Below are positions 4,110-54,071 of a DNA stretch of 64,000 bases, piece by piece. Within the stretch, counting starts at the first letter, position 1. Each line of letters opens with the position of its first letter. A model generated the notes under the pieces. It saw nothing but the letters and a program-made list of their open reading frames with translations, was not told where the DNA came from and did no database searches. The stretch lies in the NCBI RefSeq assembly GCF_044324785.1, contig NZ_CP172127.1. The stretch is one strand, 5' to 3'. A program made the position numbers and the translations under genes. This stretch comes from Escherichia coli. Its GTDB lineage: Bacteria; Pseudomonadota; Gammaproteobacteria; Enterobacterales; Enterobacteriaceae.

Positions 4110-5645
4110 ATGGCTACATCAGTACAGACAGGTAAAGCTAAGCAGCTCACATTACTCGGATTTTTTGCCATAACGGCATCGATGGTAATGGCTGTTTATG
4201 AATACCCTACCTTCGCAACATCGGGCTTTTCATTAGTCTTCTTCCTGCTATTAGGCGGGATTTTATGGTTTATTCCCGTGGGACTTTGTGCTGCGGAAAT
4301 GGCCACCGTCGACGGCTGGGAAGAAGGTGGTGTCTTCGCCTGGGTATCAAATACTCTGGGGCCGAGATGGGGATTTGCAGCGATCTCATTTGGCTATCTG
4401 CAAATCGCCATTGGTTTTATTCCGATGCTCTATTTCGTGTTAGGGGCACTCTCCTACATCCTGAAATGGCCAGCGCTGAATGAAGACCCCATTACCAAAA
4501 CTATTGCAGCACTCATCATTCTTTGGGCGCTGGCATTAACGCAGTTTGGTGGCACGAAATACACGGCGCGAATTGCTAAAGTTGGCTTCTTCGCCGGTAT
4601 CCTGTTACCTGCATTTATTTTGATCGCATTAGCGGCTATTTATTTGCACTCCGGTGCCCCCGTTGCTATCGAAATGGATTCGAAGACCTTCTTCCCTGAC
4701 TTCTCTAAAGTGGGCACCCTGGTTGTATTTGTTGCCTTCATTTTGAGTTATATGGGCGTTGAAGCTTCCGCAACCCACGTCAATGAAATGAGCAACCCAG
4801 GGCGCGACTATCCGTTGGCTATGTTATTGCTGATGGTGGCGGCAATCTGCTTAAGCTCTGTTGGCGGTTTGTCTATTGCGATGGTCATTCCGGGTAATGA
4901 AATCAACCTCTCCGCTGGGGTAATGCAAACCTTTACCGTTCTGATGTCCCATGTGGCACCGGAAATTGAGTGGACGGTTCGTGTGATCTCCGCACTGCTG
5001 TTACTGGGTGTTCTGGCGGAAATCGCCTCCTGGATTGTTGGTCCTTCTCGCGGGATGTATGTCACAGCGCAGAAAAACCTGCTGCCAGCGGCATTCGCTA
5101 AAATGAACAAAAATGGCGTACCGGTAACGCTGGTCATTTCGCAGCTGGTGATTACTTCTATCGCGTTGATCATCCTCACCAATACCGGTGGCGGTAACAA
5201 CATGTCCTTCCTGATCGCACTGGCGCTGACGGTGGTGATTTATCTGTGTGCTTATTTCATGCTGTTTATTGGCTACATTGTGTTGGTTCTTAAACATCCT
5301 GACTTAAAACGCACATTTAATATCCCTGGTGGTAAAGGGGTGAAACTGGTCGTGGCTGTTGTCGGTCTGCTGACTTCAATTATGGCGTTTATTGTTTCCT
5401 TCCTGCCGCCGGATAACATCCAGGGTGACTCTACCGATATGTATGTTGAATTACTGGTCGTTAGTTTCCTGGTGGTACTTGCCCTGCCCTTTATTCTCTA
5501 TGCTGTTCATGATCGTAAAGGCAAAGCGAATACCGGCGTCACTCTCGAGCCAATCAACAGTAAGAACGCACCAAAAGGTCACTTCTTCCTGCACCCGCGT
5601 GCACGTTCACCACACTATATTGTGATGAATGACAAGAAACACTAA
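4110..5645 (+). CDS. gadC: Glutamate:GABA antiporter (APC family), 511 aa
   Basis: Full-length match to GadC ([26 protein letters not shown]...); multi-pass hydrophobic profile; immediately downstream of gadB. Confidence 0.95.
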
Positions 5646-48250: not shown

Positions 48251-48359
48251 AACCGTTGCCTGGTGCGCTTCTCTTATCAGGTCTACAACCGAGCTAACGT
48301 ATGCCGGATAAGGCGTTTGAACTGCACCCCAAATGTTGGACATAATCTGACATCTGAAG

Positions 48360-48890
48360 GTGCAGTTTATGAAACATTCATTTGAAGTAAAACTTGCCGC
48401 TGTAAATCATTACCTGGCTGGTCATGCAGGCATCATTTCTACGGCAAAACTCTTTCAACTTTCTCACACCAGCCTCTCACACTGGATTAATCTTTTTCTT
48501 CTTCACGGTCCTCGGGCACTGGATTGCAGACACAAGCGTAGCTATTCTCCTGAAGATAAACTTTGCGTGGTTCTTTATGCTCTCGGGCATTCTGAGTCTC
48601 TACCCCGGGTAGCTGCCCGGTTTAACATTCCCAGCCACAACACGGTTAAAAACTGGATAAAAGGCTACCGCAAATCTGGTAATGAGGCCTTTATCAGGCG
48701 CAGGAAGGAGAAAAGCATGACCCGTTCTGATGATACCCATGAAAACGAGGCAAACATGACGCCGGAAGAGATGAAGAATGAGCTGCGTTATCTTCGCGCA
48801 GAAAATGCATATCTGAAAGCCATGCAGGAGCATCTCCTGGAAAAAAAGCGCCAGGAGCTGGAGAAAAAACGAAAGTCATCCGGAGCCTGA
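48360..48890 (+). CDS. IS3-family transposase OrfA (HTH), 176 aa
   Basis: HTH/leucine-zipper OrfA; slippery heptamer A-AAA-AAG at about 48842..48848, in frame. Confidence 0.85.
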   Translation: MQFMKHSFEVKLAAVNHYLAGHAGIISTAKLFQLSHTSLSHWINLFLLHGPRALDCRHKRSYSPEDKLCVVLYALGHSESLPRVAARFNIPSHNTVKNWIKGYRKSGNEAFIRRRKEKSMTRSDDTHENEANMTPEEMKNELRYLRAENAYLKAMQEHLLEKKRQELEKKRKSSGA

Positions 48891-48994
48891 GGTGCGGACA
48901 CTGCCAGTCTGACCTGTTAAAGGCTGCAGGGCTGGCCAGAAGCACGCTGTACTACCAGCTGTCACTGCAGAAGGCTAAGGACAAGTATGCTGAT

Positions 48995-49749
<755 letters not shown>

Positions 49750-49780: not shown

Positions 49781-50626
49781 TTATTTTCCCGCCTCCGGGT
49801 GCGTATCAAACGCCGCCATCACCAGCGCTAACTCATCCACGGTAAAGCCATGTTTCGCATCATCCACCCCCAGACCAAACTGTTCCTGCATCACGGCATA
49901 TAACGACGCCACATCTGGTAGATTTCGCTGCTCCACCGCGTGCCCATTTTCATAATGGGTAAAATGAAAATTGGTCAGTGTCAGCTTGCCGCCGTCCGGC
50001 AAATGGCGGCACATCAGCAAATGATGGCGAAAATGCGACTGCGGCCAGTGCGCAGACCAGAAATTGCCCATTACATAATCGCTTTGTTGCTGCTCGCAGA
50101 GATCAAAACGGTACATCGACTGCCAGTGCTGATGATGATTAAACTGCAACACCCAATCATCACCCGCCTGTAACAACCGATACTCTCCGTGTGGCGTGAT
50201 CTGCACGAGATCGGGAACTAAACGAATCGGCGCGGTTAGCGTCTGTCCACCGAAACCGACATCAGCAATCCATTTTTCCCCTTCCAGTTCCACCAACAAC
50301 AAACGATGGGTGCGCGGCGGTAATGCTGGCGGATTTGATAACACTACGCGCCCTAACAAGCTGCGAACGTTAAACCCCAGCTCGCGTAACACCCGCTCAA
50401 ACACGCCATTCTGCTCAAAACAGTAACCGCCACGACGGGCTATCACCAGTTTCTCTTCCAGCGATTGATCATCAAGCTGTATTTCCCTCGGCAGCAAAAC
50501 GTCGAGATTTTCAAACGGAATGGTGCAATTGTGTTTCAGGTGCAATGCACGCAGCGTATCAATATTGGCCGCAGCAGCTCCCGACCAGTTAATACGGGCA
50601 AAATAATGATTCAGAATGGGCGTCAT
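49781..50626 (-). CDS. nhoA: N-hydroxyarylamine O-acetyltransferase, 281 aa
   Basis: Matches NhoA (arylamine N-acetyltransferase family). Confidence 0.9.
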   Translation of the reverse strand: MTPILNHYFARINWSGAAAANIDTLRALHLKHNCTIPFENLDVLLPREIQLDDQSLEEKLVIARRGGYCFEQNGVFERVLRELGFNVRSLLGRVVLSNPPALPPRTHRLLLVELEGEKWIADVGFGGQTLTAPIRLVPDLVQITPHGEYRLLQAGDDWVLQFNHHQHWQSMYRFDLCEQQQSDYVMGNFWSAHWPQSHFRHHLLMCRHLPDGGKLTLTNFHFTHYENGHAVEQRNLPDVASLYAVMQEQFGLGVDDAKHGFTVDELALVMAAFDTHPEAGK

Positions 50627-50798
50627 CAGGCGTTTCCCTTAGTGGTTTTCTCAACTTATAACCTGGAATAGACGCCGCACCGGCTATTTTGTGCGATCGC
50701 GGACATGCATCACGTTTGCAAATCGCCAATCCCGTTAATTTCGTTACTTATTGCGTTACGGGCTACGCTTAAAAAAACCTTCTTCGCGAGGCGATACC

Positions 50799-51368
50799 AT
50801 GAGCCGATTTATCCCCGTCGAATTACACCATGCCAGCCGTCTGTTAAATCATGGCCCAACTATTTTGATAACAACTTTTGATGAAAAATCACAGCGACGT
50901 AATGTGATGGCTGCGGCCTGGTCGATGCCGGTAGAGTTTGAACCGCCACGTGTTGCGATCGTGGTAGATAAATCGACATGGACCAGGGAGTTGATTGAAC
51001 GTAACGGTAAATTTGGCATCGTTATCCCGGGCGTTGCAGCAACTAACTGGACGTGGGCGGTGGGAAGTGTGTCGGGGCGTGATGAAGATAAGTTTAATTG
51101 CTATGGTATTCCGGTTGTGAAAGGTCCGGTACTTGGTTTGCCTCTGGTCGAGGAAAAATGTCTGGCGTGGATGGAGTGTCGCCTGCTACCTGCGACTTCT
51201 GCGCAAGAAAAATACGACACACTGTTTGGCGAGGTAGTATCAGCAGCGGCAGACGCACGGGTATTTGTCGAAGGCCGCTGGCAGTTTGATGATGATAAAC
51301 TCAATACACTACATCATTTAGGTGCTGGCACGTTTGTTACCAGCGGCAAGCGAGTCACCGCGGGCTAA
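50799..51368 (+). CDS. yddH: Flavin reductase-like protein, 189 aa
   Basis: MSRFIPVELHHASRLLNHGPTILITT...; internal ATG of track ORF 50751..51368. Confidence 0.8.
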   Translation: MSRFIPVELHHASRLLNHGPTILITTFDEKSQRRNVMAAAWSMPVEFEPPRVAIVVDKSTWTRELIERNGKFGIVIPGVAATNWTWAVGSVSGRDEDKFNCYGIPVVKGPVLGLPLVEEKCLAWMECRLLPATSAQEKYDTLFGEVVSAAADARVFVEGRWQFDDDKLNTLHHLGAGTFVTSGKRVTAG

Positions 51369-51997
51369 AGAATCATATGCAGCAACCAAGTTGCTTAAGC
51401 AATGTTTCAATATGAGTTAAAAGCATATTTTATCTCACGATTGCATATTTTTAGTGAAGATTAATTTATCCTCACCAACATCATAGTAATTGCGTATTAT
51501 AGCTTCATTGATAAAGCCCTGTTTTGTATAAAATGCGCGGGTGGCACTAAAATCGATATGGCTGGAAGTCTCTACTAAAAGTAGTCTTGCGTGATTGGGA
51601 CAGGTCAAGAAAAAGCAGTTTTGCAGTTTTTTATTTTAGGGCACAGTTGCGAAAATTGAATCCCTTATGGACTAATGTGAGAAAATCCCGAGGTATGACT
51701 GTTTTGATATAGTGGACAATCAAGCGTCTCGAATTAACAATGAATTTCAGGTGCCAAGCCTTACAATTTGTAGCATGACGGATATAGGACAACATTAGGA
51801 AATCGGACAGAAAATTCATCATAATAAAATGACAACTTATCTCTTTCTCTCACTTTCTGAGAAATTTCACAAAAGTATAAACTGAGCCAATATGCCTTTA
51901 TATATAAAAAATACTCATGTTTATTATTATCGGAAAAAGCCAAGATTTGATTAAGGTGTATTAGTCGCGACTTGATCTGACACTGAGCCCTGAAAGG

Positions 51998-52243
51998 TTG
52001 AGAGTTACCGGTTTTGATATGGGTGTCGAATCCTTATACAAAACACGGGTAACTCTCATGCTTCATACTACCAATCCCGTTATCAAACACAAAGCCAGTT
52101 TGCTCAATCTGGCTGAAGAACTCAGCAACGTATCAAAAGCCTGTAAAATCATGGGCGTTTCGCGTGATACGTTTTATCGTTACCGCGAACTGGCCGATGA
52201 AGGCAGGGAAAGATTACGAAAGCCCGCTCCCTGCAAGGACTGA
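51998..52243 (+). pseudogene. Transposase N-terminal HTH fragment (IS remnant), truncated at the H-repeat element
   Basis: Short ORF with a transposase-like HTH (KACKIMGVSRDTFYRYRELADEG) ending where the H-repeat gene ends; no catalytic domain follows. Confidence 0.4.
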
Positions 52244-53350
52244 CGCCAGGTAGTTTCTGTCCATGGCTGCTTTTCGCATCTTACGTCTTAACCCTGCCTT
52301 GAATACCTTATCATTCGTTAAAATATTAATAGCGATGTGCCGTATCCCTGAAAATAATTCTGCTGCATTTCCTCTTCTTATTTTGCAGTCGTCTTCATTC
52401 ATTACCACGTCCAGACGCCAGTGCAGCTTATTCTCCACGTGCCAGTGATTTCGGATCGCTGTGGCGAACTTCTCAGCGGTTAAATCAGCAGAACTGATGT
52501 AATATCTGACCGTCATTTCTGGCTCTTTCTTTTGTTCTGCTATTATGGACCGAAAGGAGACTGCCACGCATAATTTCTTCAGTCCTTTCCATTCAAACGT
52601 GAAATCAATAAGTTCATCAGGGACATCGCAAACAATATGAAGACGGATTTCTTCTCTGCCTTGACTTTTTTCACTAATTGCGTAACTGTCATGCTCTGGA
52701 TTATTTAATTCTTTCAGTGGGAATTTTTCCTCAAAGGCTTTATTAAGCCGCCCCTGATTTCCTTTTACAGCGAATAAATAATCACCGCCCTGTTTTTGTA
52801 TCTTCTCTGCGATATCTTTCTGGCAACCCATCGCATCAGTTGTGATAATTTTTCCTTTAATATCCAGCATGTTAAGAAGTTCAGGGATAGCTGTGATCTC
52901 ATTGGATTTCTTATCCGTCCTGATCTGTCCGATGACAAGACTGTGCATTGTTGAGAACGCACTAATGACATGAATCGCTCCCCTGCGGCGACTCTTGTCA
53001 TAAGAATGCCGGAGCGTTTTTCCATCAATTGCAATAACGTCTTTATCATCTGAAGAATGGCAGTCACGCATCCCGTTAATAAAGCACTCGTGAAATTTTA
53101 CAGGACTGATACAGGATACAACTCTGGCAATGGTATCGTGAACAGGAATACCATTTTCAAAATCACCATATTGCTTCAAAAAATCGAGATGTGTTTCCCC
53201 AAAATCCTCTATATCTTCCCAGCATTCTGCACCAGAAATAACGGCACAAATAGTCAACAGTAGAATATCCGACAATTTATGTTCCACTTTCTAGGCTTGT
53301 CTGTAATCGGGGATAATAGAAATATGTTCCATCAATTTTTTCAGTTCCAT
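52214..53350 (-). pseudogene. H-repeat-associated (ISAs1-family) transposase gene with an in-frame amber codon at codon 20
   Basis: Track ORF 52214..53287 matches the YhhI/YdcC-type H-rpt protein from [21 protein letters not shown]...; the in-frame sequence upstream reads [29 protein letters not shown] (ATG at 53348..53350, TAG at 53291..53293, where intact homologs have TGG). Confidence 0.75.
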
Positions 53351-53630
53351 TTTGTTCTCCTTAATTATGTAAGGAGTATTTGATCATGTATACGCAATAA
53401 AAAACAGCTTTAGGTAATAAGGAATATCTCAATTTTTAAACATAAAATGCGAATTATTTAGTACAAAAAGTGAACTTCTGATGATCTTTCCCTGCCCATT
53501 GGGTTCATTAAGATCAAGAATAATGGGAATATGCTCAAGAAGACTTTGAATGTTCACCAGACGTCCTTTTCTAATATATTTAATTATTTGGCGATTAAAT
53601 TTTAATCAAATCAACAAGGTAAAACCAAGA

Positions 53631-53696: not shown

Positions 53697-54071
53697 TTAC
53701 TCTAATGGTTTTATTAATTGTAAATTTTTAAATGTCATGCTTAATAAGCCATCAGAAAAATAAAGAAAAAATTTATATATCCTTTTGTTTTTTAATTTCT
53801 TTATATACCCATTACTTATATTACCTGACTTGTGATTATCGATTAACTCAGCAGAATCCATAGCGAACACTAAATCATCTACATCAGAAAATTCAACTAT
53901 CATTTTTTCCCTAATGTTCTCATTTTTATAAATGTCAATAAATAACGTCATGTTAAAATGAGATTCTTTGAATGTCGTTTTTACTTCTAACAAAACCCCA
54001 TCATGCCAGTCAATTGAACTCACAATGTCAAAATCGCTCATTATATAATCTCCATTATCCGTTTTAATCAT
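53697..54071 (-). CDS. Candidate immunity protein for the downstream Rhs C-terminal domain, ~124 aa
   Basis: Small low-GC ORF starting at or just after the stop of the rhs C-terminal domain; no signal peptide; alternative start at 54041. Confidence 0.55.

Follow-up and report, generated by a model that had tools for sequence, protein, structure and literature searches.

Gene order and composition beside yddH

The window analysed here, a 64 kb stretch of Escherichia coli DNA, carries at its yddH-proximal Rhs boundary, in order, nhoA, yddH, a spacer (51369-51997), a helix-turn-helix (HTH) pseudogene, an ISAs1-family ydcC pseudogene, a small ORF and the Rhs core (Table 1). yddH is an intact flavin-reductase-family gene of 189 aa; the heavily rearranged Rhs/vgrG island reaches up to its stop codon, which forms a fixed border. 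The spacer is AT-rich, as the first-pass annotation of this DNA had described it, with a GC content of 0.35-0.39 against 0.47-0.52 in the flanks. It is 100% identical to the corresponding sequence of E. coli strain N3 (NZ_CP031609), in which the RefSeq annotation (PGAP) places no feature under the spacer and leaves three pseudogene fragments unannotated. Identity between the window and N3 runs from 51318 to at least 53400, and 44 SNPs separate the two within 50717-51317, an interval that takes in the promoter of yddH and two-thirds of the gene from its 5' end and looks like a recombinant patch of ~600 bp. The window is accordingly DNA of an N3-like strain and not of N3. An IS1397-like (IS3-family) element at ~48286-49749, between yddE and nhoA, is not found in N3; E. 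coli EF5-18-41 also carries an IS1397-like element in the yddE/nhoA intergenic region, in the orientation opposite to that of the window.

Table 1. Features at and around the spacer, with positions in the window
Feature	Coordinates	Strand	Basis
nhoA	49781-50626	minus	
yddH	50799-51368	plus	ORF; strain N3 RefSeq annotation; Pfam Flavin_Reduct E 1e-21
pptA vestige, last ~16 codons	51369-51416	minus	position-anchored alignment
Linker of 18 nt between pptA vestige and GNAT stop codon	51417-51434		alignment against pptA-type alleles
GNAT N-acetyltransferase 3' remnant, codons 105-155 plus stop (51435-51437)	51435-51590	minus	tblastn
Junction of 463-bp deletion relative to LHM10-1 (L001 ~4229-4691)	51597-51598		blastn and four-way MAFFT
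Former intergenic DNA between GNAT gene and 211-aa gene	51598-51760		homology to L001 4692 onward (90.9%) and L003 4226 onward (97%)
3' remnant of 211-aa hypothetical gene (WP_001032567.1 family), codons 148-211 plus stop (51761-51763)	51761-51955	minus	tblastn
IS481-family left end, K-12 ylbG-like, starting TGTATTAGTCGCG	51957-52203	plus	95% identical to ylbG in ~3000 genomes
ISEc1 (ISAs1 family, 'H-repeat', ydcC), complete at 1291 bp, transposase pseudogenised	52204-53494	minus	K-12 comparison

Alignments against the corresponding loci of E. coli LHM10-1 (L001), EF5-18-41 (L003), K-12 (L004) and ATCC 25922 (L005) resolve the spacer into juxtaposed fragments. By these alignments it is a composite scar, made up of a pptA vestige, the 3' remnant of a GNAT gene, the remnant of a gene for a 211-aa protein and the left end of an IS481-family element. 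The first-pass annotation had recognised the GNAT remnant among these, and had not seen the second gene remnant or the IS end.

Gene remnants and insertion sequences in the spacer

In K-12, the 77 codons of pptA run convergently to yddH, the two genes sharing 4 bp at the 3' end of yddH, and ydcC lies ~100 bp upstream of pptA. Its product, PptA (YdcE, b1461, 77 aa), we take to be an enzyme of the 4-oxalocrotonate tautomerase family, in which the N-terminal proline is the catalytic residue. On the strength of the K-12 map, the first-pass annotation had expected this gene beside yddH and reported that no ORF for it was present, and a tblastn search with K-12 PptA (MPHIDIK...) bears this out, returning nothing better than E 6.8 from the whole 64 kb window. 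None of the spacer ORFs resembles PptA, and a homologous ORF of ~60-77 aa with an N-terminal proline, as is typical of the family, is lacking. What that annotation overlooked, in finding no pptA in the spacer, is the 48-nt 3' vestige that follows the yddH stop at the genomic position of K-12 pptA: the gene is absent, with 61 of its 77 codons lost, including those of the N-terminus, and its very end remains. Read in the pptA frame to the stop codon, the vestige gives ...THIETLLKQLGCCI, against ...PQMEALIKKPGYSMNA in K-12. An anchored alignment finds 30-33 identities over these 48 nt with the intact pptA 3' ends of K-12, of the E. coli representative genome and of E. albertii, a score (z = 5-7) attained by 0 of 2000 shuffles, and the next 48 nt score at chance level against pptA in the same anchored test. 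The homology of the vestige rests on this position-anchored test, given that an unanchored local search is not convincing (score 30, barely above shuffles that reach 26). The direct alignment of the window with K-12 extends to 51402.

The left breakpoint of the replacement falls within the short linker that follows the vestige, a linker common to all the GNAT-type alleles compared (the window, LHM10-1, EF5-18-41 and ATCC 25922). The distance between the yddH and GNAT stop codons is likewise the same 66 nt in all four of these alleles. A breakpoint common to every GNAT-type allele examined points to a single replacement event, as far as can be read from the alignments. The vestige is slightly more diverged from the Escherichia pptA ends (30-34 of 48) than E. 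albertii pptA is from that of E. coli (36-39 of 48), and the replacement may therefore be old, or its junction may have arisen in a different lineage and reached this one by import; a simple, recent replacement in situ is perhaps too simple an account. A search of 80 yddH loci of other species for a donor of the vestige turned up none nearer to it than E. coli or E. albertii. Compared with K-12 and the other alleles, nhoA-yddH diverges in a mosaic pattern, with 75-100% identity per 120 bp and no clean gradient toward the junction.

The minus-strand frame that had been likened to the C-terminal end of a GNAT-type acetyltransferase proves to have a close relative. In a tblastn comparison, positions 51438-51590 are identical to residues 105-155 of the GNAT protein WP_000470660.1 at 49 of 51 sites (E 3e-29), and homology to the intact gene at the DNA level extends to 51597. 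The parent, of 155 aa, was located in E. coli LHM10-1 by megablast against 5426 complete E. coli genomes; there it is annotated as intact, occupies the corresponding site and runs convergently to yddH as the remnant does, and its stop codon lies as far from the yddH stop as it does in the window. It passes the Pfam cut-offs of three GNAT models, namely Acetyltransf_7 (PF13508, 39.7 bits against a cut-off of 27), Acetyltransf_1 (PF00583, 33.5 against 20.7) and Acetyltransf_10 (PF13673, 26.7 against 23.6), and carries the acetyl-CoA-binding motif A of the beta4-alpha3 region, (Q/R)-x-x-G-x-(G/A), as QRQGVG at residues 84-89. In sequence comparison, its closest match among solved structures is PDB 2r7h, a 'putative D-alanine N-acetyltransferase of GNAT family' (parent residues 2-150, E 1.4e-14), and its score against RimI is 37 bits, below the cut-off of 86.

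In contrast to this parent, the window keeps only the last third of the gene, the N-terminal 104 residues and the upstream region being gone. A deletion of 463 bp relative to LHM10-1 took GNAT codons 1-104, with the QRQGVG motif among them, together with ~155 bp upstream. The GNAT frame upstream of the remnant runs into stop codons because this sequence is deleted, which explains why the first-pass annotation could see no upstream continuation. No direct repeat or microhomology is seen at the deletion junction in the four-way MAFFT alignment, in which EF5-18-41 has a junction identical to that of the window. What is left is an ORF of 57 codons (51435-51608, minus strand) with a TTG start at 51608. 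The 57-aa translation, too short for the purpose, matches no Pfam family at E values up to 10, and hence no GNAT domain above a curated cut-off. Its frame is open in both deletion-type sequences read (the window and EF5-18-41), with 5 synonymous and 3-4 non-synonymous differences, too few to test for selection. Given its near-identity to a bona fide GNAT gene and flanking DNA collinear with the intact locus, the fragment is, by homology, a GNAT pseudogene remnant rather than a member enzyme.

Beyond the former intergenic DNA lies the second gene remnant, which is identical at 62 of 64 residues to the 211-aa hypothetical protein (tblastn, E 3e-42), the intact gene for which is annotated in EF5-18-41. 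Searches of Pfam and NCBIfam gave no domain for this protein, and homologues of it turned up in E. coli, E. albertii, Shigella and Pseudocitrobacter alone. The remnant ends at the IS481-family fragment, for which a first blast had suggested an end at ~51945; base-by-base comparison with full-length copies replaced this by 51957, the base at which these copies and K-12 ylbG begin. The N-terminus of an HTH transposase is encoded from 52058 (Pfam HTH_29, E 1.9e-12), and the NCBIfam model transpos_IS481 is matched at E 1.2e-6 with 28.3 bits against a cut-off of 224 bits, a shortfall expected of a 61-aa fragment. The element is incomplete, consisting of the left end and the HTH N-terminus alone, with the rest cut off by ISEc1, and RefSeq labels it 'helix-turn-helix domain-containing protein, missing C-terminus'. 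Its junction with the second remnant (51956/51957) occurs in one of the 5426 genomes, that of strain N3.

ISEc1, labelled 'ISAs1 family transposase, internal stop' in RefSeq, shares 96.4% identity with the K-12 ydcC element over 1291 bp and cuts the IS481 fragment at 52203/52204. The terminal repeats CAGGGAAAGAT are present at both of its ends, and a target-site duplication is absent, the flanks being unrelated (left, GATGAAGG; right, CCATTGGG). The flanks were therefore probably joined by recombination between ISEc1 copies, which linked this piece to the Rhs element, and not by simple insertion. The arrangement resembles that of K-12 RhsE with its H-repeat (ISEc1/ydcC), where an Rhs core tip, a small ORF and ISEc1 are likewise followed by yddH-nhoA-yddE-narV, and an IS481-family fragment (ylbG) is also found at the edge of K-12 RhsD. 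At the K-12 RhsE boundary, however, ISEc1 stands ~100 bp upstream of an intact pptA, whereas in the window it abuts the IS481 fragment, followed by the two gene remnants and the pptA vestige.

Distribution and ancestry of the pptA-type and GNAT-type alleles

pptA is covered at 80% or more in 4084 of the 5426 complete E. coli genomes (about 75%), and ~569 genomes (about 10%) retain the last 59 nt of the gene alone. In the one example of the latter allele that was read, SCAID WND1-2022 (L087 3854-5060), ISEc1 truncates pptA, and between ansP and yddH the entire Rhs/vgrG island is missing. The GNAT-type allele accounts for about 12% of genomes. The 5' segment of the GNAT gene is present in 435 genomes, about 17 of which have the undeleted segment as in LHM10-1, and ~418 a B2-type version at ~95% identity (represented by UTI89, ATCC 25922 and NGF1). 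The 463-bp deletion allele is carried by ~220 genomes, a number estimated from spacer coverage and not junction by junction (237 genomes with at least 80% of the spacer, minus up to 17 with the undeleted segment). In ATCC 25922, the one strain of the B2 type in which lesions were read, the GNAT gene (L005 4067-4534) carries W72stop together with a 1-bp deletion, and a G of motif A is changed to R; RefSeq gives just a 71-aa 'hypothetical protein' at this position. Judged by these lesions and by the deletion, the GNAT gene is one that has been inactivated independently at least twice, and by the same reading it is intact in well under 1% of genomes and nearly always dead. pptA is dispensable: about one in four complete E. 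coli genomes has lost it or carries it truncated, and this came about in two or more independent ways. No paper describing the pptA/GNAT polymorphism was found in the literature.

The direction of change was assessed in an outgroup scan for relatives of yddH, taking one genome per species, which yielded the 80 loci mentioned above. In every Escherichia locus among them, namely those of two E. coli-like representatives, E. whittamii, Escherichia sp. E1V33 and E. albertii (a partial match), pptA follows directly after yddH in convergent orientation. It likewise adjoins yddH in Citrobacter youngae, C. braakii, Kluyvera, Kosakonia and Pluralibacter; in all these loci, those of Escherichia included, the pptA homologue lies within about 10-130 bp of the yddH stop, and in many others within a few kb. 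A GNAT gene stands at yddH in none of the 80 loci of other species. Because the outgroup loci carry pptA and never GNAT, and the GNAT-type alleles have a vestige of pptA within them, comparison of gene order shows the pptA-yddH arrangement to be ancestral and the GNAT-type allele derived.

Full-length homologues of the GNAT protein, at 69-84% identity, are scattered over several hosts. They include Salmonella enterica, where the gene sits in an integrase / AlpA / CbtA-CbeA island, Phytobacter, where its neighbours are a MarR-MFS pair and an IS3 element, a plasmid of Enterobacter, and further hosts such as Kluyvera, Serratia and Aeromonas. At the DNA level, similarity to the E. coli locus is limited to the coding sequence (73-76%), and no matches to the neighbouring hypothetical genes of E. 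coli were found at the Salmonella and Phytobacter GNAT loci. Homology confined to the coding sequence is as expected for mobile cargo, and on this distribution the GNAT gene is best described as mobile single-gene cargo.

Formation of the scar and competing readings

In our reading, to which we give a probability of roughly 90% on comparative sequence evidence, the spacer has no function and is a composite scar that several rearrangements, one after another, have left at the edge of the variable Rhs/vgrG island that faces yddH. The gene decay and the replacement near the Rhs boundary that the first-pass annotation had suspected both find concrete form here: GNAT codons 1-104 are deleted, the 211-aa gene is cut by the IS481-family element, and pptA, except for its last 48 nt, has given way to an AT-rich module with the GNAT gene. 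The two outcomes that could have overturned that suspicion, a pptA homologue in the spacer and a GNAT-like frame without a significant match, both failed to appear, and the alignment of the spacer with K-12 and other strains that it called for separates pptA-type from GNAT-type alleles and maps the deletion. As an initial step, an AT-rich accessory module ending in the GNAT gene would have replaced the ancestral pptA, with a breakpoint 48-66 nt inside the pptA 3' end; the change of state is visible between alleles, and its mechanism is what we infer. In the lineage of the window, the 463-bp deletion seen in the alignments then removed motif A with the N-terminal part of the gene and also the upstream region where the GNAT promoter would lie, leaving a promoterless 3' third. 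Finally, an IS481-family element entered the 211-aa gene, by insertion or by recombination, sparing its last 64 codons, after which a full ISEc1 would have truncated the IS481 element, and recombination between ISEc1 copies probably joined the piece to the Rhs element. The junctions of this last stage are observed in the sequence, and their order is proposed. Promoter-like and terminator-like sites in the spacer show no excess over shuffle expectation, and 51369-51997 is expected to encode no working product.

Alternative readings give some part of the spacer a function or reverse the direction of change. If the 57-codon ORF were a functional small protein, it would consist of six new N-terminal codons joined to the C-terminal beta-strands of the GNAT fold; the frame is intact in both the window and EF5-18-41, and the deletion allele is estimated to occur in ~220 genomes. 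Such a protein would, however, be without motif A and without any of the N-terminal half of the GNAT fold, and has no Pfam match. Its TTG start is preceded by no Shine-Dalgarno-like sequence, the upstream (promoter) region of the parent is deleted and no minus-strand promoter-like site was found, PGAP leaves the ORF unannotated, and the independent inactivation of the full GNAT gene in ATCC 25922 and matching B2-type strains argues against selection on the locus. We regard a functional small protein as very improbable. It is hardly credible that E. coli started from the GNAT-type arrangement and that K-12-like lineages acquired pptA by a later insertion. B2 is often placed as an early-branching phylogroup, and the presence of the GNAT-type allele in B2 strains (UTI89, ATCC 25922) would suit that order of events; it is incompatible with the convergent pptA after yddH in all Escherichia loci and in several other genera, with the lack of GNAT at all 80 outgroup loci and with the pptA 3' vestige that GNAT-type alleles carry.

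A functional non-coding RNA or regulatory element, either a psRNA2-like sRNA or an antisense partner regulating yddH in the way that transcription of pptA may in K-12, is improbable for reasons of a different kind. The Rfam family psRNA2 (RF02349) does match 51868-52055 on the minus strand (49.7 bits, E 1e-10), and pptA-yddH is listed among the convergent overlapping gene pairs ('excludons') of K-12 (PMC12288877). The score nevertheless falls below the gathering score of 65 required for membership, and the match aligns well within the IS481 left end (51957-52055) alone, with the 3' third of the model falling in the unrelated remnant of the 211-aa gene; the match is therefore a truncated copy of an IS-associated sequence. 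The same alignment suggests that the psRNA2 family itself may correspond to IS481-end sequence, such as that upstream of K-12 ylbG. Moreover, promoter-like and terminator-like sites are no more frequent than in shuffled sequence, and the junction is unique to one of 5426 genomes, so that no conserved element is involved. We attach a similarly slim chance to a broader proposal, in which the yddH 3' flank would be a site of partner exchange, occupied by either pptA or GNAT, with the vestige and the GNAT tail kept as the 3' end of the yddH transcript or as the remnant of an antisense 'excludon', or in which the 57-codon ORF would be a functional microprotein.

The composite scar, then, is ordinary debris of an already-known kind, pseudogenes and insertion sequences at the boundary of a hypervariable island, and it opens no new biological question. 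Its use lies in typing of the Rhs/vgrG island and in the choice of pptA or yddH as markers, and is otherwise mostly a matter of annotation hygiene.

The island itself varies in content. In many GNAT-type strains, among them EF5-18-41 (L003 4393-8588) and ATCC 25922 (L005 4317-8221), a vgrG/tssI gene and an M35 peptidase gene stand beside yddH, together with several domain-less hypothetical genes, and the vgrG module takes the place of the Rhs core; type VI secretion (vgrG) modules and Rhs modules are therefore alternatives at one chromosomal site. In the window, where the Rhs core is present, a 135-codon ORF of low GC content (0.26) lies on the minus strand at 53697-54104, without a Pfam or NCBIfam match, and its position directly downstream of the Rhs C-terminal tip (54068-56089) suggests a candidate cognate immunity gene.
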